A DNA stretch of 64,000 nucleotides from Patescibacteria group bacterium (GCA_041651015.1 JBAZKA010000001.1:205158-269157); one strand, 5' to 3'; counted from the stretch's first letter, positions 1 to 9,782 are shown. The notes: generated from the letters alone by a model not told the origin. Program-made: numbers and translations.

Positions 1-288
1 AAAAATATCCCAAGTGATTATGAAGGTGTGATGGGTGTGCCGATTAGTATTATGGATAAATATAGTCCGGAGCAGTTTATAATTTTAGGAACAAATGATA
101 ATGGTCTTGTTGATGATAAATATAAGAAAACACCAGGTCTAACAAGAGAATTTGTTGACGATTATTACAAAGCTGGCGGTACAGGGGCATATAAGGAAGG
201 CAACCCAACAGCTGGTTATTACGAGAACAACATTGCAAAGATGGCATATAAAAGAATTTTTATAAAGCACAAGAAAGTCAAAAAATAA
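1..288 (+). CDS. DNA adenine methyltransferase, C-terminal fragment (EcoRI-methylase-like phage/plasmid-type family); 5' end outside window
   Basis: The frame is open from nt 1, with no stop before the listed GTG at 28. The C-terminal block ...GVPISIMDKYSPEQFIILG...AYKRIFIKHKK matches, from memory, the conserved tail of pfam13651-like N6-adenine MTases. Stop TAA at 286-288. Confidence 0.45.
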   Translation, partial: KNIPSDYEGVMGVPISIMDKYSPEQFIILGTNDNGLVDDKYKKTPGLTREFVDDYYKAGGTGAYKEGNPTAGYYENNIAKMAYKRIFIKHKKVKK

Positions 289-291
289 ATT

Positions 292-1650
292 ATGAAAAAT
301 AAATTTAAAGAATTTTATCGATATAAGGATAACGAAATAGAAAAAATCTGGAAGGAGTGTATTTTTGTTTTTGATACAAATATTCTTTTAGATCTTTATA
401 GATATAGCAAATCAACCTCAGATAAATTTATCAAAATACTGAAAAAAATAACCCAAGAAGAAAGATTGTGGTTGCCTCACCAAGTAGGTTTAGAATTTAA
501 CAAAAAGAGAATAATTTTGATATCTGACCTGAAGAAATCATATTCTGACATAAAAGAAACTATTGAAAATTCGTTTAATGATGCTCAAAAGAAAATTGAC
601 GATAAATATCACAAAGAACATCCTTTTATAAATTTAAAAGAAATTGAATCAGAAATTGAAAAATGCAAAAAGATCATTTCAAAAACCATAGAAACGAATG
701 AAAAAAGTCATCCCGATTGGTTCAATAAGGATGAAATTTTTGAAGCGATAACAGAAATATTTGAAAATAAAGTTGGAGATGAATATAAAAAAGAAGAACT
801 TTCAAAAATATTTGAAGAAGGAAAGGAAAGATACGCAAACAAGATACCTCCTGGTTATGAAGATTTAAAAAATAAGGAAGATGGTAGAGAATACGGCGAT
901 CTGATTTTATGGTTTCAGATAATTGATATGGCGAAATCATCTAAGAAATCGATTGTTTTTATAACCCGAGATAATAAATCAGATTGGTGGTGGAAACAAT
1001 CAGGAGATACTATCGGTCCTCGACACGAATTAAAATATGAGATAAATAAAAAGGCAGGTGTTGATTTCCATATGTACAGTTCCGAAAAATTTTTAGAGTA
1101 TGCATCAGATTATTACAAAGAAACAGTTGACCAAAAATCAATCAAAGAGGTCAAGAGAATGAGCCGTCTTTTAGAAGAAAAAAATTATATAATGCATAAA
1201 ATGATGAATTTAAAATGGTTTAAGACCCCTTTTGTTCACGAATTTATTATGCAACAGGAAATGCTTAATAAAGAGCTGGCTAATCTTGTTAGAGAGACGC
1301 ACATAGATGAAGAGATTTTATTTGAATTTAGTAGAAATCAAGAAAGAGTTATGCATTTTATAGAACATATTTCAAATGAGGAAAGACCGCACCCTATGAT
1401 GTTTGAGGAGTTGTCTATGCTCAAAGAAAAAATGCAAATAGGATTGTTAGACTTTATGAAATCAAGAGAGATGGATGAGCGTCAAAAAGAATACCTAATG
1501 AGATTTCTTGAAAGAATGAATGAATCCTATATGATGTTAATAAGGTGTGCAGATAAGGAAGGTGTTTTTGAAAAATATTATCATAGAAATAAAATAAATA
1601 ATCATCGGTTGCAAAGATATTTAAGAGATGATGTAGAGTTAGAAAGTTAA
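292..1650 (+). CDS. PIN-like domain protein (predicted nuclease) with ~200-aa Met-rich helical C-terminal domain
   Basis: 452-aa ORF starting 3 nt after the MTase stop. It has PIN-type acidic motifs (FVFDTNILLDL, HQVGLEF, YGDLILWFQ, FITRDNKSDWW). The C-terminal half is predicted helical, with no fold I recognise. Confidence 0.5.
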   Translation: MKNKFKEFYRYKDNEIEKIWKECIFVFDTNILLDLYRYSKSTSDKFIKILKKITQEERLWLPHQVGLEFNKKRIILISDLKKSYSDIKETIENSFNDAQKKIDDKYHKEHPFINLKEIESEIEKCKKIISKTIETNEKSHPDWFNKDEIFEAITEIFENKVGDEYKKEELSKIFEEGKERYANKIPPGYEDLKNKEDGREYGDLILWFQIIDMAKSSKKSIVFITRDNKSDWWWKQSGDTIGPRHELKYEINKKAGVDFHMYSSEKFLEYASDYYKETVDQKSIKEVKRMSRLLEEKNYIMHKMMNLKWFKTPFVHEFIMQQEMLNKELANLVRETHIDEEILFEFSRNQERVMHFIEHISNEERPHPMMFEELSMLKEKMQIGLLDFMKSREMDERQKEYLMRFLERMNESYMMLIRCADKEGVFEKYYHRNKINNHRLQRYLRDDVELES

Positions 1651-1665
1651 ATTATAAACAATAAT

Positions 1666-2835
1666 ATGAAAACCACACTAAAAACCAATATCACGGTCAA
1701 GGATATTTGCGACGGGTTTGTCTATAATGAATTGGAAGGTAAGGGCTTATTTGGTTTGTCCGGCAAGCTCACAATCCAGCCGGAGTATCAGCGTAATTAT
1801 ATTTATGCCTCGGACGGCGGAAAAAGAGAAATGGCCGTTATTGAATCAATCCTCAAAGGTTACCCAATCGGCTTGATATATTTTAATAAAGTTTCTGAAA
1901 ACAATTTGGAAGTTTTGGACGGACAACAACGCATCACCAGCGTCGGGCGTTTCGTCACCGATAAATTTGCCATCAAAGATGAAAATGGCATGGAACAATA
2001 TTTTGGCGGTATGGCCAAAGACAAGAAAGCCAAGATAATGGAAACAAAATTACTTATTTATGAATGTGAAGGAACGGAAAGTCAAATAAAAGAATGGTTT
2101 AAAACGATTAATATCGCCGGTGTTCCGCTCAATAATCAGGAGTTGCTTAATGCTGTGTATTCCGGGCCGTTTGTGACACTTGGCAAGGAGGAATTTAGTA
2201 ATAGCCAAAATGCCAACATACAAAAATGGAGCGCGTATGTATCGGGTAGCGCGAACCGGCAAGATTTTTTGGAATGCGCGCTGGACTGGGTGAGCAAAGG
2301 CAATATCGGAGACTATATGAGCAGTCATCGATTTGATAAAAATATTACCGAGCTGAAAAAATATTTTAACAGCGTAGTTGACTGGGCATCAAGCGTGTTT
2401 ACTGATGTGGAAAGTGAAATGCGCGTATTGGAGTGGGGGAGATTGTACGAAGAGTACCACAAAAAAGCGTATAATTCTGCGAAAGTTTCTGCCGACGTAC
2501 AAAAGCTCTATGCAGATCCGTATATCAAAAATCGTAAAGGCATTTTTGAATATATCTTGGGCGGTTCTATAGACACAAAATTGCTTGAGGTTAGATTTTT
2601 TGATGACGCAACCAAAAAATTGGTATACAAAGAACAAACGACTAAAGCGGAAAAGAAAAGAGAATCTAACTGTCCGGATTGTGCTCTTGGGCATGAGGCA
2701 AATAAAGATAAAATTTGGAAACCAGACGAAATGGACGCCGACCATGTAACTGCGTGGAGCAAGGGAGGAAAAACAGCATCAAAAAATTGCCAGATGTTGT
2801 GTAAGACGCATAATCGAGCAAAGGGGAATCGATAA
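1666..2835 (+). CDS. DUF262 (ParB/GmrSD N-terminal-like) + HNH endonuclease protein
   Basis: Carries the DUF262 motifs IQPEYQRNY and LDGQQRITS. The C-terminus has an HNH motif (CPDCALGHE...[12 protein letters not shown]...[15 protein letters not shown]). 389 aa. Confidence 0.65.
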
Positions 2836-2885
2836 TAAAAAAATTATCAAAGTAAAATTACTAAATTTTTAGGAGGATAAAAAAT

Positions 2886-4298
2886 ATGACAAAAGAAGAA
2901 GTATTAAAAAAAATTAAATATGGTTTAGAAATATCAAGCGAACTTCCTGATCTTGAATTTAAGACTGCGGCGAGCAGCATTCCAAACGATATTTGGAGAA
3001 CTATCTCCGCTTTTGCGAATCGAAGAGGTGGGGGACTTGTTGTGTTCGGAGTTAACCAACAGGAAAACAAGATAACCGGTTGTTTTAATTTAGACCAGAT
3101 GCAAACTAAACTTACGGAATATTTTAATGATAAGATGAGTTTTGTTTTGCGACCGGAATATCACGTGATTGAAGACGGAGGGAAAAATATTTTAGCCGTT
3201 GTTATTCCGGAATGCCCAAAGGATTATATGCCCTGCTATTTTAAACCGATCGGACTTCCAAACGGCGCATATATTCGTGAGGCAAATACCAGTAGGATGA
3301 TTACCGATAATGAATTCAGAACATATGTCGCGACTTCAAAAGAATTTCAATTTGATTTGTCGGAAGCGGTGAATACCGATAAAGACGAAATTTCTACATC
3401 CAAAGTGACAAATCTGCTTGAACAAAGCGAATCTCAGGTGAAAAGAGGAGCGACACATATTATTGATGACACAGTACTTGAAAATTTAGGGATTATTTCC
3501 TCGTTTGATGGTGGGTATAAACCCACTATTGGAGGATATTTAATATTTGCTAAAATAATACCGCAAAACAAAAACCCCTACAATCGGTATACCGTTCGAT
3601 GTATTCGTTATGCTGGAAGCGATCCGTCATCTAAAATTATTGATGCTGTGGACATAACGGGAACGCTTGATTCTCAAATTGATGATGCTTACAAATTTGT
3701 TTTAAAAAATATCGCTAAAGATGCTGTAATTATTGGTACTAAGCGCGTTGAACGCTATGAATATCCTGAAGAAGGCGTTCGAGAATTAATAGCAAACGCC
3801 ATTATTCATCGCGACTATAAAATCATTGAAACATATACCCAAATACGAGTATTTAAAGATAGGATTGAAATAATTAATCCCGGATCTCTTCCACCCGGTG
3901 TTACAGTAGACAATATTAAAGAAGCGCAGTTCAGTCGCAATTCTATGATTGCCGCGAGACTTAAGGATATGCGCTATTTGGAAGAATATGGGCGCGGCAT
4001 TGATATTGTTATAAAGAAAATGTCTGATTGGAATTTACCCGATCCGTTATTTAGAAATTCTGTGAATAGTTTTGAAGCAATTCTTTTGGGCAATACATAC
4101 CGCGAGATTAATGATCGTCAAGCAAAAGTCATCGATGTTTTACTTATAAAAGGACGGCTTACTGTTCACGACTGCCAAAAAATATTAAAAGGAACGCCGA
4201 GGGCAACCATTAACAGCGATCTAAAAAAGTTAAGAGACCTTGGAATTTTGGTGCCAAATGGTGCCTCTGTCAATACATATTATACACTCTCTTTTTAG
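2886..4298 (+). CDS. AlbA_2 (Schlafen-like divergent AAA) / HATPase_c_4 / C-terminal wHTH putative regulator
   Basis: AGGAGG RBS 7 nt upstream. The N-terminus has the AlbA_2 signature (LEFKTAASSIPNDIWRTISAFANRRGGGLVVFGV). The central GRGIDIV motif is typical of the 'RecG C-terminal-like' HATPase domain. 470 aa. Confidence 0.6.
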   Translation: MTKEEVLKKIKYGLEISSELPDLEFKTAASSIPNDIWRTISAFANRRGGGLVVFGVNQQENKITGCFNLDQMQTKLTEYFNDKMSFVLRPEYHVIEDGGKNILAVVIPECPKDYMPCYFKPIGLPNGAYIREANTSRMITDNEFRTYVATSKEFQFDLSEAVNTDKDEISTSKVTNLLEQSESQVKRGATHIIDDTVLENLGIISSFDGGYKPTIGGYLIFAKIIPQNKNPYNRYTVRCIRYAGSDPSSKIIDAVDITGTLDSQIDDAYKFVLKNIAKDAVIIGTKRVERYEYPEEGVRELIANAIIHRDYKIIETYTQIRVFKDRIEIINPGSLPPGVTVDNIKEAQFSRNSMIAARLKDMRYLEEYGRGIDIVIKKMSDWNLPDPLFRNSVNSFEAILLGNTYREINDRQAKVIDVLLIKGRLTVHDCQKILKGTPRATINSDLKKLRDLGILVPNGASVNTYYTLSF

Positions 4299-4451: not shown

Positions 4452-4979
4452 ATGAAAGATTCAATTGAAGAAAATTTAGCGTTTAAATTAACGGCGTATC
4501 TCGGTTTGCTAGGTGCGTGGTTATATTTAGTAAATCATTATCTTTCGTTCATTCCCTTGGGACCCAAATCGTTCATTCCATGGTGTGTGATTGTGCTTAG
4601 CTACGTACTATTTTATCCAATTGTTCAATTGACAATGATGCTCGTGTACACATCACTTTATCAAGTGCAAGTAGAGAAAGAGAAAATAGAGGAGATTAAA
4701 TCAAAATACGAAAGACACGCGAAAGAATTTTTTAATTGGTGGTCAATAGCGATATTACTAGCGCCTGCTTTCATAATAATTTCGTTTTTTCCGGATAAGT
4801 ACTGGTATCTTATAATTATATTCTCAATATTATGCGTGTTTATTATATGGTTTGTATGTTTTAAAAATATATTCGCGCTCAAAGACAGTATAAAATATTT
4901 TCAGTTTTTTTGGAAAAGATTATTAATATATACTTGTTTTTTTGCGGCACTCGTTTTTGCTCTATATAATTCAAGATAA
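4452..4979 (+). CDS. small integral membrane protein (about 4 TM helices), unknown function
   Basis: 175 aa, hydrophobic helices; very AT-rich. Confidence 0.4.
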   Translation: MKDSIEENLAFKLTAYLGLLGAWLYLVNHYLSFIPLGPKSFIPWCVIVLSYVLFYPIVQLTMMLVYTSLYQVQVEKEKIEEIKSKYERHAKEFFNWWSIAILLAPAFIIISFFPDKYWYLIIIFSILCVFIIWFVCFKNIFALKDSIKYFQFFWKRLLIYTCFFAALVFALYNSR

Positions 4980-4984
4980 ATAAA

Positions 4985-6412
4985 ATGTCCTACACCGTCG
5001 CCAAAAACACATCATTCCTCACCGCCGCGTCCATCGGACAAAAGCTGATTTCTTTTGTTTATTTTACGATTGTCGCCCGGCTCATCGGAGTAGAGAACAC
5101 GGGCCAATATTTTTTCGCTTTGACTTATCAAAGCATATTCGCCGTGGTGGCGGATTTCGGCTCGGCCGCGGTCCTGACGCGCGAGATGGCGAAGTTTCCG
5201 GAAAAAATCCAATCAATATTTTCCACCGCCCTGGGCAACAAACTTTTGTTCGGTTCAGTCGCGTATATTTTGGTGGCCGTGTCTGTCAATGTGCTCGGCT
5301 ATGCCCCTGATGTAAAGAATCTGATTTATCTCGCGGGCGCGACCATGTTTTTTGATAACTTCCACTCGTTGTTTTATGCCGTGTTCCGCGCCAACCGCAA
5401 TTTGAAATATGAATCTTTCGGCATTGTCGGTTCGCAATTTTTGACTTTGATCGTGGGCTCAGTCGCCCTTATCAATCACTGGTCCCTGATTTGGCTCATC
5501 GCTGCCTACACCATCCCGAGCGTTTTGAATGTTTTGTATTCGGGATTTTTTGTTTTGCGTACCACGGCCGTCCGTCTCAAATTATCTTTTGAAAAATCCA
5601 TGTGGCGCGAGTTTTTGATTATGGCCTGGCCGTTTGCTTGCGCCGGCATTATCGGCCGGTTGTATTCGTATAGCGACAGTTTGCTCATGTCCAAAATGCT
5701 CACCGGACGGGAACTGGGCGCGTGGAGCGTGCCGTACAAAATCACTTTTGCTTTTCAGTTTGTCGCCTTGTCCTTGTCCGCGAGCGTTTATCCGGTTTTT
5801 AGCGCGCTTTGGACCACGGACAAACCGGCCCTCGCGAAATTATTTGAAAAATCCTGGCGCTATTTGTTTAGTATTGTCTTTCCACTTTCGGCCGGCATCT
5901 TTGCTATTGCCGCGCAATTTATCATGAAGGTTTATGGCGCGGATTACGCGGATTCAATTTTTCCTTTACGCGTGTTGTCCATCAGTTTGGTGTTCGGCTA
6001 CTTGGCGATTATTTGCGCTTCCATGTTGAACGCCATCGGCCAGCAACGCAAACAAACCTTGCTTATGTCCATCGCCCTGGTCGCGAGTGTTGCCAGTAAT
6101 CTAGTTTTGCTTCCGCGCTATGGTATAAACGGCGCGGCCTTTTCCGCGTTATTCAGTAATTTTCTGATGTGGGGAATCGCTTTCGTGTTTGTAAAAAAAT
6201 ACACAAACGTGGATTGTAAAATCATTTTCAAATACGCTTTACAAACATTGGTGCCGGCTTTTATCATGGGCGCTTTGGTTTATTGGCTGTGCGCGCGGAT
6301 GAGTTTTGTTATTGCCGCGCCCATTGGCGCTGTTGTCTATTTTGCTTTACTGTTTTTGACCGGCGGATTGAACAAAGAAATTATCAATGAAGTTAAGACA
6401 AAAATGCTATGA
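4985..6412 (+). CDS. polysaccharide biosynthesis protein / oligosaccharide flippase (Wzx, MOP superfamily)
   Basis: 475-aa polytopic membrane protein with a flippase-like N-terminus (TSFLTAASIGQKLISFVYFTIVARLIG...GQYFFALTY). It lies directly upstream of two glycosyltransferase genes. Confidence 0.6.
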   Translation: MSYTVAKNTSFLTAASIGQKLISFVYFTIVARLIGVENTGQYFFALTYQSIFAVVADFGSAAVLTREMAKFPEKIQSIFSTALGNKLLFGSVAYILVAVSVNVLGYAPDVKNLIYLAGATMFFDNFHSLFYAVFRANRNLKYESFGIVGSQFLTLIVGSVALINHWSLIWLIAAYTIPSVLNVLYSGFFVLRTTAVRLKLSFEKSMWREFLIMAWPFACAGIIGRLYSYSDSLLMSKMLTGRELGAWSVPYKITFAFQFVALSLSASVYPVFSALWTTDKPALAKLFEKSWRYLFSIVFPLSAGIFAIAAQFIMKVYGADYADSIFPLRVLSISLVFGYLAIICASMLNAIGQQRKQTLLMSIALVASVASNLVLLPRYGINGAAFSALFSNFLMWGIAFVFVKKYTNVDCKIIFKYALQTLVPAFIMGALVYWLCARMSFVIAAPIGAVVYFALLFLTGGLNKEIINEVKTKML

Positions 6413-7521
6413 AAACATTAATCATCACCCTTGAGTATCCGCCTCAGATCGGCGGTATCGCTTCATACGCCTACAATCTGGCCAAACATTTACCGGCCGA
6501 GGAGACGTTTGTCTGGTCTCCAACTATGACGGGCGATGTTGATTTTGACGCGAAAAATCCGTGGAAAACATTTCGCGGTAAACCGTATTATGTTTTCTTT
6601 TGGCCTCGCTGGCTTCGTTGGTACCGGCAAATCAAAAAAATCGTGAAGCAAGAAAAGATTGAACGCCTGCTCATCCAGCATGCCTTGCCCGGGGGATACA
6701 TCGGCTACATGATAAATAAATTACTCAAAGTGCCGTATCGCGTATTTTTTCATGGCTCGGATTTGGAAATTGGTTTAAAAAAGAAATTGAAAAAATTAAC
6801 ATTGGTTTGCGCCAAAGCCGAGAAAATAATTGTCAGCAGTGAGTTTTTGAAAACAAAAATATTGTCGCGTTGTGAAAATATCGCGCCCGTGATCGTGGTG
6901 CATCCGGCGCCGGGTGATCATTTCCTCACGCCGATCAAGCCCGAGGAAGTGGCCTCGGTGCGCCGTTCCTTGGCTTTGGACGGTAAGAATGTTATTATTT
7001 CGGTCGGACGCATTGCCGAGGGTAAAGGCTTCCCGCATCTGATGCGCTTGTTGCCAAAAATTGTGAAGCGCGTGCCTAATGCTGTTTTGCTTCTCATTGG
7101 CGACGGCCCGAAACGAAAAGCGCTTTTGGAATCCATCCAAGCAAATGGTTTGCAAAATTGCGTGCGCTATTTGGGCTTTATTCCCAATGAAGAATTGCCG
7201 AAATATTATCAGGCGGCGGATTTGTTTGCGCTCCTCACGCATCGTGATGAAAAATCCGAAGAAGGTTGGGGGACAGTATATATGGAAGCGGCCGCGTGCG
7301 GATTGCCGATTGTCGCGGGCAATGTGGGCGGAGTGGAGGAGGCGGTCAAACATTTGCAGACTGGAATTTTGGTGGATACGTATCAGGAGCTGGAAGTGAT
7401 TGGCGCGGTTTGCGATTTACTTTTGAAAGATGACTACGCGCGCGCTATGGGCTCGGCCGGACGCGAACGTGTTTTGAATGAGTTTGCTTGGGATAAACAA
7501 GTGCAAAAGATAATGGAGTAG
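6409..7521 (+). CDS. glycosyltransferase family 1 (GT4-type)
   Basis: Motifs EGKGFPHLMRLLP and GLPIVAGNVGGVEEAV (GT-B E-x7-E region). Overlaps the flippase stop by 4 nt. Confidence 0.65.
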   Translation: MKTLIITLEYPPQIGGIASYAYNLAKHLPAEETFVWSPTMTGDVDFDAKNPWKTFRGKPYYVFFWPRWLRWYRQIKKIVKQEKIERLLIQHALPGGYIGYMINKLLKVPYRVFFHGSDLEIGLKKKLKKLTLVCAKAEKIIVSSEFLKTKILSRCENIAPVIVVHPAPGDHFLTPIKPEEVASVRRSLALDGKNVIISVGRIAEGKGFPHLMRLLPKIVKRVPNAVLLLIGDGPKRKALLESIQANGLQNCVRYLGFIPNEELPKYYQAADLFALLTHRDEKSEEGWGTVYMEAAACGLPIVAGNVGGVEEAVKHLQTGILVDTYQELEVIGAVCDLLLKDDYARAMGSAGRERVLNEFAWDKQVQKIME

Positions 7522-8446: not shown

Positions 8447-9782
8447 TGGCAAGAAATATAAACCCGAACACATGAAATAGCGCGGGCGACGTGATATTTA
8501 TTACGAGCAATGCCACGAGCGGCGCGCAGATAACATGCCCGTTAGGGCTTTTTATATGATAAAACGCGGTCATGATAAGCGCAAACCAAATGATGAGCCC
8601 AGTAGCGCCCATCTCGGCCAGAATTTCCAAATACCCCCAGTCAAAATGCGGGGTGGTGATTAATTCGTTGTACACCGGACTCCACACAGTCACTGTGTCG
8701 CCAAGGCCTGTGCCGAATATTGGCGCCGAAGAAATCTTTTCCAGAATTTTGGGCAAGAGCAACATGCGCGAGAGGGAACTCTCTTCAATATGCGGGGCGA
8801 CGATACTGGTGGCGCGCAGTCCGAAATATTCCCAGCCCGGATTAGCTAAACCACCGACCAGAACATGCAAAAATGTGAACCAGCCGAATACGGAAAGCAA
8901 AATCACCGCCGAGTTGATCAGCCATCGGCGCCATAGTGTTTTAGTAAAAGCAAAGCACAAGCCGACGAGCAACGCCAAATAATATATGCGCGTCAGGTTG
9001 ACGGACAATATCGCGGCCGCGGCCGGAAGCGCCATATCGTTCACAAATTCAATTTTTTGTTTGACGCGGGTAATGAAATACAAGGCCACCGGAACAAGCA
9101 AGAGTTGTTCGTTCAAAATCACGCGGAAAAAATTCGCGCCCGTGTCGGTAATTTTACCCCCGCAAACATCGCGGAACCAATGATAATAATTATCTTGCAA
9201 AACAAAAATTCCAAATCCGTACATGAGCGAAGTAAAAACCGTGATCAGTCCGCAACCGATCAGCGCGCCGGCAATCATATTGAAAACTTCGCGTTTGAAT
9301 TTTTCATCGTGAAGCAAATCGCGCAAAGGAAAATAATACAGCAAAAATAAATAGGGGATGAAGTCGGAAATTATCAACGAAAGTACGTGATGGTTGTGAT
9401 AGCCAACGAACGCAGAAATTCCGGCCCAGATAATAAGCGCGAAAATTAGAAGAGATTGCTTCGTCGGCCTTCGGCCTTCTCGCAATGACATAATGAAGTA
9501 GATTCCCACAGACGCAATCAGCAAAAGCGTGCGGAGCGACACCGAACCGACTGAAAGCATATTTCCGCTCCCGCAAAAAATTATTTCACCGGCCACGATG
9601 AGCCAACCCCGCCAATCTTTTTTAATCAGCCAGTACATCGCGAGCGCGAGAACCGCAACCGCGACAATTATGTTCACAATCGAACCCGCGACGAGCGGAG
9701 TGACTGGGGTAAAAAAATACGTAAAAACCCGCACGGCAAAATAACCGGCTAAGTATATAAAAAATTTTTTCGGTGAGAACAT
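8364..9782 (-). CDS. O-antigen ligase / Wzy-like polytopic membrane protein
   Basis: 472 aa with at least 10 predicted TM helices and the large periplasmic loop pattern of the O-antigen-polymerase family. Its 3' end overlaps the convergent GT2 gene by 83 nt. Confidence 0.45.
   Translation of the reverse strand: MFSPKKFFIYLAGYFAVRVFTYFFTPVTPLVAGSIVNIIVAVAVLALAMYWLIKKDWRGWLIVAGEIIFCGSGNMLSVGSVSLRTLLLIASVGIYFIMSLREGRRPTKQSLLIFALIIWAGISAFVGYHNHHVLSLIISDFIPYLFLLYYFPLRDLLHDEKFKREVFNMIAGALIGCGLITVFTSLMYGFGIFVLQDNYYHWFRDVCGGKITDTGANFFRVILNEQLLLVPVALYFITRVKQKIEFVNDMALPAAAAILSVNLTRIYYLALLVGLCFAFTKTLWRRWLINSAVILLSVFGWFTFLHVLVGGLANPGWEYFGLRATSIVAPHIEESSLSRMLLLPKILEKISSAPIFGTGLGDTVTVWSPVYNELITTPHFDWGYLEILAEMGATGLIIWFALIMTAFYHIKSPNGHVICAPLVALLVINITSPALFHVFGFIFLAIILAHASSPQSSSPSHTGEQTRISTAD

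Follow-up and report, generated by a model that had tools for sequence, protein, structure and literature searches.

A Putative Two-Gene Restriction–Modification Cassette with a PIN_8 Nuclease Gene as Cargo at Its Methylase/Nuclease Junction

Organization of the Locus

The window, that is, the whole stretch of 64,000 nt that was analyzed, opens with four ORFs on the + strand: the 3′ end of a methyltransferase gene (M), a gene of the PIN_8 family, a DUF262-HNH nuclease gene (R), and a Schlafen-like gene (table 1). The description given in an earlier note, that is, four co-directional genes lying 3, 15, and 50 nt apart, the last one preceded by an AGGAGG ribosome-binding site, was confirmed by the ORF coordinates. 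The domains that it had named (EcoRI_methylase, PIN, DUF262, HNH, AlbA_2, and HATPase_c_4) were all matched by Pfam HMMs. The four genes are probably co-transcribed. A regulatory coupling with the Schlafen-like wHTH protein is possible, since no convincing terminator was found between the four genes.

Table 1. Features of the locus, in window positions
Feature	Position	Strand	Basis or remark
M, 3′ end (95 C-terminal codons), runs off the window	1..288	+	Pfam, PADLOC, R-locus census
Junction after the M stop codon	289..291	+	R start codon position in cargo-free cassettes (TAA-n-ATG or ATGA overlap)
PIN_8 nuclease gene, 452 aa, cargo between M and R	292..1650	+	
PIN_8/R spacer, A-rich, ending in AATAAT	1651..1665	+	Most cassettes have this context immediately ahead of the R ATG
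R, DUF262 (ParB-like, DGQQR motif) + HNH nuclease gene, 389 aa	1666..2835	+	Pfam, PADLOC
AGGAGG ribosome-binding site of the fourth gene	2871..2876	+	9 nt before the ATG at 2886
Schlafen-like AlbA_2 + HATPase_c_4 + C-terminal wHTH gene, 470 aa	2886..4298	+	Pfam; PDB relatives 2kyy, 3lmm
Multi-pass membrane ORF, 175 aa, GC 0.31	4452..4979	+	Last gene of the low-GC island

The genes lie in a low-GC island which starts upstream of the window at an NYN gene (L001:7949), itself another accessory of the same island, and ends, as had been described, at the membrane ORF, for which no family was matched in profile searches. The GC content is 0.29–0.41 over the four genes and rises from 0.31 in the membrane ORF to 0.47–0.48 in the two glycan genes that follow it. 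The PIN_8 gene, at 0.29, is poorer in GC than M (0.37) and R (0.41). GC differs from gene to gene and therefore the locus is a mosaic. The order M-PIN_8-R is not an artefact of assembly, because a second contig of 2,626 bp from an independent sequencing run spans the three genes and is identical.

The Methylase and the DUF262-HNH Nuclease

The N-terminus of M, which the earlier note had suggested recovering, was found upstream on the source contig. The full gene, of 399 aa, lies at L001:8798-9997, where window position 1 corresponds to L001 9710. The EcoRI_methylase profile (PF13651) matched the window fragment with an E value of 1.7e-13 and the full protein with 3.7e-124. The full M also matched the MTase_II model of PADLOC (PDLC03297, E 1.1e-102), as expected of a Type II MTase. 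By these profiles, M is a predicted N6-adenine DNA methyltransferase of the EcoRI family. Two segments of the M alignment are hypervariable and could be target-recognition elements.

R carries GmrSD_N (DUF262, E 2.7e-20) followed by a C-terminal HNH domain (PF01844, E 3e-6), and no DUF1524 was found in it by Pfam. The prediction of its structure is of low confidence (pLDDT 38). The earlier statement that no canonical type II REase follows the methylase did not hold: R matches the REase_II model PDLC03418 of PADLOC end to end (E 5.8e-77, residues 7-388 against 6-371 of the 372 of the model), and M is located upstream and co-directionally in 72 of the 80 related R loci, which belong to many phyla. 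The arrangement which PADLOC and DefenseFinder score, a Type II REase near an MTase, is present in the window with one intervening gene. R would thus belong to a catalogued type of type II REase and be the restriction partner of M. Equally, the view that DUF262-HNH proteins act alone as type IV nucleases does not apply to this family, whose members nearly always accompany an MTase and are devoid of DUF1524.

More than 580 species-representative genomes encode homologues of R that are 83–92% identical; they are mainly of Patescibacteria, and many other phyla are represented as well. Conservation of the DGQQR motif and of the C-terminal HNH/Cys motifs is 95% or higher over 81 loci, and in 28 close homologues these motifs do not vary. 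The mean amino-acid identity is 84% for R and 67% for M, and the synonymous sites of R are saturated. Such a large excess of conservation in R over M is not typical of type II enzymes. Judged from these alignments, R appears to be a restriction nuclease under unusually strong purifying selection.

In cassettes free of cargo, either a single nucleotide separates the stop codon of M from the ATG of R or there is an overlap of 4 nt, and R would be translationally coupled to M. The pair is also carried by small Pediococcus plasmids, by Enterococcus megaplasmids, and by one Flavobacterium phage. In two loci (L017 and L037), R is without an EcoRI-type M in the locus sequence examined. As far as gene content and distribution indicate, M and R form a widespread mobile two-gene restriction–modification (RM) cassette, in which M would methylate adenines of the host DNA and R would cut unmethylated incoming DNA by means of its DGQQR NTP-binding domain and HNH active site.

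Under a different assignment, R would be a nuclease that depends on modification (type IV-like) or is nonclassical in some other way, and M would not be its type II protective partner. For instance, M could supply target recognition to an R devoid of specificity, as in type III systems, or the pair could chiefly be a selfish addiction or mobility module. The type IV enzymes GmrSD, BrxU, and SspE typically have a DUF262 domain with DGQQR, and the higher conservation of R, the hypervariable segments of M, the two loci with R and no M, and the cassette being the main load of small plasmids and present in a phage point in the same direction. On the contrary, the strict order of M before R, with overlapping or 1-nt spacing across phyla, is the signature of a protective MTase and a nuclease toxic in its absence, and a nuclease that depends on m6A would be self-destructive if encoded beside an m6A MTase. 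The classical HNH domain in place of DUF1524 and the fact that R matches, over its full length, a Type II REase family already catalogued also argue against this assignment, which is considered quite improbable.

The M/R Junction and Its Cargo

Co-directional genes, one to three in each case, are placed at the M/R junction in 33 of the 81 cassettes (∼40%). They include RhuM, T5orf172, DUF2130, Fic, Bro-N, AntA, HEPN_AbiU2, OLD-like, and PD-(D/E)XK genes, additional MTases, and unknowns; about ten of the cargo gene families have no Pfam match. The canonical TAAtATG junction is frequently the start of the first cargo gene, and one cassette (L073) retains a 17-codon remnant of the 5′ end of R. 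In the R tree the cargo-bearing cassettes cluster, yet they carry different cargo. The M/R junction is a recurrent cargo slot at a single precise point. Genes embedded in RM operons have been described before, that is, PrrC in EcoprrI, RhuM, Doc, and HEPN (PMC3710099; PMC12707154), and further precedents are TgvAB and the candidates embedded in Hma (PMC11411939).

In the window this slot is occupied by the PIN_8 gene. When the DNA is aligned with that of L066, a cassette free of cargo, ∼1.35 kb of inserted sequence appears exactly at the M/R junction, and this insertion corresponds to the PIN gene. The protein matches PIN_8 (PF18476) with E 4e-68 and 230 bits against a gathering cut-off of 26.1, and PIN_12 was matched as well. 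Its PIN domain is N-terminal (about aa 20-250), and the structure model, which is confident, matches the PIN fold (Rossmann-like alpha/beta/alpha). The complete acidic constellation that had been read from the sequence is borne out by 41 homologues, in which D28, E68, D203, and D231 are invariant; from the model and this conservation the domain looks active. The Met-rich helical C-terminal domain was likewise recovered: the last 167 aa are helical with 17 Met and form a six-helix bundle (about aa 281-449), relatives of which number only 6 among 1.84 billion cluster representatives. A function for the PIN_8 family was not found in the literature.

The earlier note had suggested a search for PIN-like and DUF262-HNH genes that occur together in other genomes, and such co-occurrence is seen in part. 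PIN_8 recurs with such a cassette in L086 and L121 and adjoins an M in L103, but none of the 80 related R loci contains it. A PIN_8 gene that is 72% identical follows M directly in another cassette, the R of which shows only 38% identity, and in L121 the order is M-R-PIN_8. Since PIN_8 recurs with two cassettes that are divergent, it could have a specific functional link to them and be more than a passenger. No M or R is located near five of the six close PIN_8 homologues and ∼76 of the 80 metagenomic PIN_8 loci, and no partner gene recurs beside PIN_8 across the homologue contexts examined. PIN_8 is autonomous, with most of its genes standing alone; here it is cargo in the M/R slot, and its association with the cassette is recurrent but facultative.

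In the RM operons that host PrrC, a guardian arrangement is at work, and the same may be asked of PIN_8: M and/or R would hold it inactive until a phage anti-restriction protein, by disabling the RM enzyme, frees it, with RNA degradation and abortive infection as the outcome, and cassette and cargo would be one integrated two-layer system. PIN_8 lies within the same transcription unit with spacers of 3 and 15 nt, accompanies two divergent M-R cassettes and a third arrangement (M-R-PIN_8), and has no small antitoxin gene beside it, its neighbors being M (3-nt gap) and R. The other cargo (RhuM, Fic, HEPN, and OLD) is the same as in the type I RM operons where PrrC works in this way, and R is conserved as strongly as might be expected of a hub with interfaces to maintain. 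Nevertheless, most PIN_8 genes, including those 59–68% identical, lie singly among housekeeping genes and have neither M nor R beside them, so PIN_8 must be self-regulated, and the great diversity of the cargo argues against a specific protein–protein licensing for each passenger. A guardian role of M or R is for these reasons held to be unlikely. As cargo, PIN_8 would be transcribed with M and R and serve as an effector of a second layer that works autonomously. It would be a metal-dependent nuclease, probably an RNase as in the VapC-group PINs, and would be restrained by the variable helical domain at its own C-terminus. Embedding would provide its co-expression and co-transfer with the RM genes.

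The Schlafen-Like Gene and the Locus as a Whole

The fourth gene has the order SLFN_AlbA_2 (PF04326, E 2.5e-15), HATPase_c_4 (PF13749, E 3.7e-22), and C-terminal HTH that defines its family, with the HTH matched weakly (TrmB, E 0.067; Csa3-like, E 4e-4). Homologues at 50–95% identity are common in Patescibacteria, and members of the family are often annotated as “ATP-dependent DNA helicase RecG-like” or “ATP-binding protein.” No Schlafen-like homologue was found in the 80 related R loci. In all three contexts examined, homologues that are 79–85% identical are solitary among unrelated genes. The Schlafen-like gene is an independent single-gene mobile module which landed beside the cassette.

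The candidate defense operon of the earlier note is retained in that the genes are of defense type and tightly packed and that the MTase and the DUF262-HNH nuclease belong together; its four components do not make one system. A dedicated four-gene system is largely refuted by the neighborhood census, in which PIN_8 and the Schlafen-like gene each occur in 0 of 80 R loci. Under that proposal the MTase, PIN_8, the DUF262-HNH protein, and the Schlafen-like ATPase-HTH protein would form one multi-effector or self-immunity unit, in agreement with their co-direction, tight spacing, lack of a convincing terminator between them, and shared low-GC island. Set against the census, the three of three Schlafen-like and five of six PIN_8 homologue contexts without the other genes, and a GC content that varies by gene (0.29, 0.41, 0.37), such a unit is very improbable. 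The reading that we consider likely is a two-gene RM cassette with PIN_8 in its M/R slot and an independent Schlafen-like neighbor.

Comparison with Known Systems

The cassette resembles Type II RM systems in the position of the MTase upstream of the nuclease, in the MTase_II and full-length REase_II matches, and in its carriage by plasmids and phage, as is the case for other mobile RM units. It differs in that R has a ParB/DUF262 NTP-binding domain fused to HNH and is more conserved than the MTase, and in that the M/R junction takes foreign genes. With GmrSD, BrxU, and SspE, R shares the N-terminal DUF262 with invariant DGQQR and a C-terminal His-Me finger nuclease. Those enzymes are solitary, whereas R is paired with an MTase in 72 of 80 loci; furthermore, its nuclease is a classical zinc-binding HNH (PF01844) and not DUF1524, and it is ∼200 aa shorter.

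In accordance with the known embedded accessory genes (PrrC, RloC, RhuM/Doc/HEPN, TgvAB, and the Hma candidates), genes of toxin or abortive-infection type are found here inside an RM transcription unit, with RhuM, Fic/Doc, HEPN, OLD/ABC ATPases, and DUF262 as the families in common. In the present case the genes are carried by a type II-like cassette of two genes and not by type I, BREX, or Hma; TgvAB is embedded in the type I RM of V. cholerae VPI-2. Moreover, insertion is at a single precise junction and the passenger is PIN_8. The placement of PIN_8 between M and R corresponds to that of PrrC as an effector gene embedded in an RM operon, but PrrC consists of an ABC-ATPase and HEPN and PIN_8 of a PIN domain and a helical bundle. 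In a survey of PIN-like nucleases, none was reported from type II RM contexts (Matelska et al. 2017, PMC5499597).

As in VapC-type PIN toxins and the PIN_8 family, the protein has the Pfam PIN_8 domain, four conserved acidic residues, and the PIN fold. Its length is three times that of VapC; it also carries a long insert of helices and, at the C-terminus, a helical bundle specific to its lineage, and no antitoxin gene adjoins it. The fourth protein agrees with the Schlafen-like AlbA_2/HATPase_c_4/wHTH proteins (2kyy and 3lmm) in domain order and length, and no specific difference from them was found.

Conclusively, what is new here is that a compact type II-like pair joins type I, BREX, and Hma systems as a carrier of embedded genes. 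The idea of a new four-gene defense system is replaced by a carrier RM cassette, an interchangeable passenger, and an independent neighbor. With its position so exactly defined, the cargo slot offers a natural “guilt by embedding” trap for PIN_8 and for the families without Pfam match.

A more far-reaching possibility, to which only a small probability is given, is that the cassette is a dedicated carrier platform, in which the unusually constrained R or the M-R complex would be a common hub licensing any effector placed in the junction, be it PIN_8, RhuM, Fic, HEPN, OLD, or an unknown, so that loss or inhibition of restriction would unleash the passenger. This would explain the ∼84% identity of R despite saturated synonymous divergence and the hopping of PIN_8 between divergent cassettes. 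If true, the cassette would be a modular, exchangeable two-layer immune system across many bacterial phyla.

Gene Order and Composition of the Locus

Four plus-strand ORFs open the window, which begins within a gene; their spacers are 3, 15 and 50 nt in order, and an AGGAGG lies 9 nt upstream of the ATG of the fourth (see table for coordinates). This layout, described in an earlier note, is borne out by the ORF coordinates, and Pfam confirmed each domain name of that note: EcoRI_methylase in the first ORF (the methyltransferase, M), PIN_8 (E 4e-68) and PIN_12 in the second, GmrSD_N/DUF262 and HNH in the third (the nuclease, R), and SLFN_AlbA_2, HATPase_c_4 and a weak wHTH in the fourth (the Schlafen-like gene). 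The missing 5′ part of M, which the note had proposed to recover, is present on the source contig (L001, in which window position 1 corresponds to position 9710) and gives a full protein of 399 aa (PF13651, E 3.7e-124).

The source genome is a Patescibacteria MAG. The order M-PIN_8-R is real, because it is also found on a 2.6-kb contig, identical in sequence, that stems from an unrelated sequencing run. The GC content of the four ORFs is 0.29–0.41, and that of the two glycan genes following the next, 175-aa membrane ORF is 0.47–0.48. At the other end, the source contig shows one more gene of the low-GC island upstream of M, an NYN-domain gene with which the island opens; RadC and ribosomal-protein genes precede it. 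A search of the island flanks for repeats, tRNA genes and a recombinase returned nothing meaningful, the promoter and terminator scan gave the same result as shuffled sequence, and neither Pfam nor NCBIfam nor PADLOC matched the membrane ORF. NYN genes recur in or beside other cassettes of the M-R family.

Features of the window, of its source contig (L001) and of loci with homologues (other L numbers); identities are to the PIN_8 of the window
Feature	Coordinates	PIN_8 identity	Remarks
M, 3′ part	window 1-288
PIN_8	window 292-1650
PIN_8 C-terminal domain	window 1147-1647		residues 286-452
R	window 1666-2835
Schlafen-like gene	window 2886-4298
Multi-pass membrane ORF, 175 aa	window 4452-4979		GC 0.31; closes low-GC island
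NYN-domain (PIN-like) nuclease gene	L001:7949-8569		just upstream of window; opens low-GC island
NYN genes of other cassettes	L086:7099-7638; L046:6416-6976
Remnant of R 5′ end	L073:1249-1305		17 codons
Complete R of the same locus	L073:2251-3417
Schlafen-like homologue and HTH gene	L091:237-1860
PIN_8, L086		72%	right after MTase of divergent cassette (38% identity for R, 52% for M); then two small ORFs, T5orf172, NYN, R
PIN_8, L121		41%	order M-R-PIN_8; M/R overlap 4 nt, R-PIN_8 gap 4 nt
PIN_8, L103		~42%	upstream of an M
PIN_8 with DUF262 gene, L168	L168:218-3605	~41%	1 nt after end of 761-aa DUF262 (GmrSD_N) protein
PIN_8, five other close homologues		41-68%	solo, housekeeping surroundings
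PIN_8, ~76 of 80 metagenomic loci		33-57%	neither M nor R nearby; no recurrent partner among neighbours
Cargo-slot ORFs without Pfam match	L011:4601-5761; L016:3575-4987; L018:455-1450; L029:5294-5863; L038:4870-6150; L051:5922-6788; L059:6391-6999; L064:5915-6970; L086:5635-5982 and 6109-6459		115-470 aa

M and R Form the Conserved Unit

Relatives of R number in the thousands; the best 120 cluster representatives are 87–92% identical and nearly all exactly 389 aa. With each species represented by a single genome, a scan gave at least 581 R loci, some on Mb-sized contigs, in Patescibacteria, Omnitrophota, Chloroflexota, Actinomycetota, Elusimicrobia, Nitrospirota, Bacteroidota and Proteobacteria. 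Among the best 80 loci, an EcoRI-family MTase is located upstream of R and co-directional with it in 72, the other eight being mostly contigs too short to reach M. The note had read all four genes as one system, which does not survive this neighborhood comparison: homologues of PIN_8 and of the Schlafen-like gene are each found at 0/80 of these loci. What stands of that reading is that the locus is defence related and that M and R belong together. In empty cassettes, a single nucleotide separates the M stop from the R start (TAAtATG), or the two overlap by 4 nt; this pair, in its overlapping form, also occurs on Pediococcus plasmids of 9–10 kb, on Enterococcus faecium megaplasmids and in the Flavobacterium phage laban6-1.

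PADLOC, a check suggested in the note, called M an MTase_II (E 1e-102) and matched R from end to end with a Type II REase model (PDLC03418, E 5.8e-77; E 3e-139 for the R variant of L086). The MTase thus does have a type II REase downstream, contrary to the premise of the note, and equally wrong is the view of this DUF262-HNH protein as a solitary type IV nuclease, since R is paired with M in most loci and, in Pfam, lacks DUF1524, the defining domain of GmrSD. None of M, PIN_8 and R is covered by an NCBIfam model, the PDB sequence search gave no match to R, and literature searches returned neither a paper on the M-R family nor the characterized enzyme behind PDLC03418.

In two loci (L017 and L037), R is preceded by cargo (AAA_21 or RhuM), with no EcoRI-family methylase in 9–15 kb of locus sequence. 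Further upstream in L037, UbiD and a radical-SAM MqnC-like gene are located.

Conservation of R Versus M

The mean amino-acid identity of R over 81 loci from many phyla is 84%, with a nucleotide identity of 78%, a saturated pS (0.74) and a pN of 0.09; it is thus purifying selection, and not recent transfer of identical DNA, that keeps the proteins similar. For M of the same loci, which were selected by similarity to R, the mean identity is 67%, with hypervariable regions at aa 221–260 and 341–380 (numbering of the L001 M). The usual pattern of classical type II systems is the opposite one, with the REase less conserved than the MTase. These features of R and M, together with the M-less loci L017 and L037, would fit two less likely readings: that M and R share their tasks in a non-classical way, or that R or the M-R complex licenses whichever effector occupies their junction. 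The catalytic motifs are conserved (DGQQR, HNH and Cys pairs, NPPF in M and the PIN acidic tetrad). An AF2 model of R, built with 28 near-identical homologues, reached a pLDDT of 38, too low for use.

A Cargo Slot at the M/R Junction

The junction is filled in 33 of the 81 cassettes, with between one and three genes that are nearly all co-directional. Of the cargo families assigned by Pfam, RhuM with an HTH is the most frequent; the others include T5orf172, DUF2130, Fic, Bro-N, AntA, HEPN_AbiU2, an OLD-like ATPase-TOPRIM and a PD-(D/E)XK protein. Additional methylases of the D12 or C5 type also occur, and one of them comes with a GHKL ATPase. Such a repertoire is already on record for type I RM operons, as "embedded" genes (PMC3710099); PrrC is the paradigm of the RM-embedded effector (PMC12707154), and TgvAB and the Hma-embedded genes are further cases (PMC11411939). 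About 10 cargo families have no significant Pfam match, and by "guilt by embedding" their ORFs are candidate defence or toxin genes.

The first cargo gene frequently starts at the canonical TAAtATG position. In L073, a remnant of the R 5′ end stands directly after the M stop, at the canonical junction, and is followed by a RhuM gene and then by a complete R; this remnant is a footprint left when recombination within the 5′ end of R brought in the cargo. In 7 of 21 filled cassettes, the window not among them, the cargo has a short repeated junction, AAAAAATAAT, on its flanks. As an insertion footprint it is suggestive only, and it may be a mere translational-coupling context. DNA alignment of the window with an empty cassette (L066) shows collinear blocks for M and R and, between them, an insertion of ~1.35 kb which is the PIN_8 gene, with a distinct GC content of 0.29.

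In the R tree, the nearest neighbor is also filled for 26 of the 33 filled cassettes, versus 41% overall, and the cargo of such neighbors is mostly different, an indication of rapid cargo turnover. The region downstream of R is also variable, with TA and abortive-infection-type genes mixed with housekeeping genes.

PIN_8 and the Schlafen-Like Gene

The C-terminal 167 residues of PIN_8 form a six-helix bundle with 17 Met. Among 1.84 billion cluster representatives, this domain has only six relatives, each a PIN_8 protein or a fragment; the Met-richness is confined to the closest subclade, and in the family at large this region is the variable part. PIN_8 matches the phage family phrog_9788. PADLOC has no model for it, the PDB sequence search gave no match, Foldseek of the predicted structure against the PDB gave nothing at E < 1, and literature searches returned no paper on its function. 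In the PIN classification, the family is entered as "function unknown" and no PIN-like nuclease is reported in type II RM contexts (PMC5499597).

Most of the tabulated contexts of PIN_8 are without M or R; it is thus a self-contained single-gene module without an antitoxin, and its presence in or next to an M-R cassette is recurrent but facultative. Licensing of PIN_8 by failure of the RM system, in the manner of PrrC, is improbable, because most PIN_8 genes exist without an RM partner. The DUF262/PIN_8 pair of L168 is tight and stands outside the M-R cassette family.

Homologues of the Schlafen-like gene (50–95% identical, mostly 470–475 aa) are common in Patescibacteria. In three homologue contexts (79–85% identity), MTase, PIN and DUF262 genes are all absent, and together with the absence of the Schlafen-like gene from the 80 R loci this shows that the gene is an independent neighbor of the cassette. 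In L091, a 68-aa Xre-type HTH gene precedes the homologue (85%) with a 4-nt gap, so that in some genomes the two may make up one module. Structures of relatives (2kyy, 3lmm) are without attached function.

Implications for the Cassette Family

The locus is best described as an RM cassette of type II-like kind in which PIN_8 is an embedded passenger, and the embedding as a fresh variation on an already known theme. In the proposed mechanism, M would protect the host DNA through N6-adenine methylation and R would restrict unmethylated DNA via its NTP-binding DUF262 module and HNH nuclease, while PIN_8 may serve as a second-layer nuclease effector that gains from co-expression and co-transfer. 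The main value of the finding lies in the widespread, sharply defined cargo slot and in the unusual conservation of the R nuclease.
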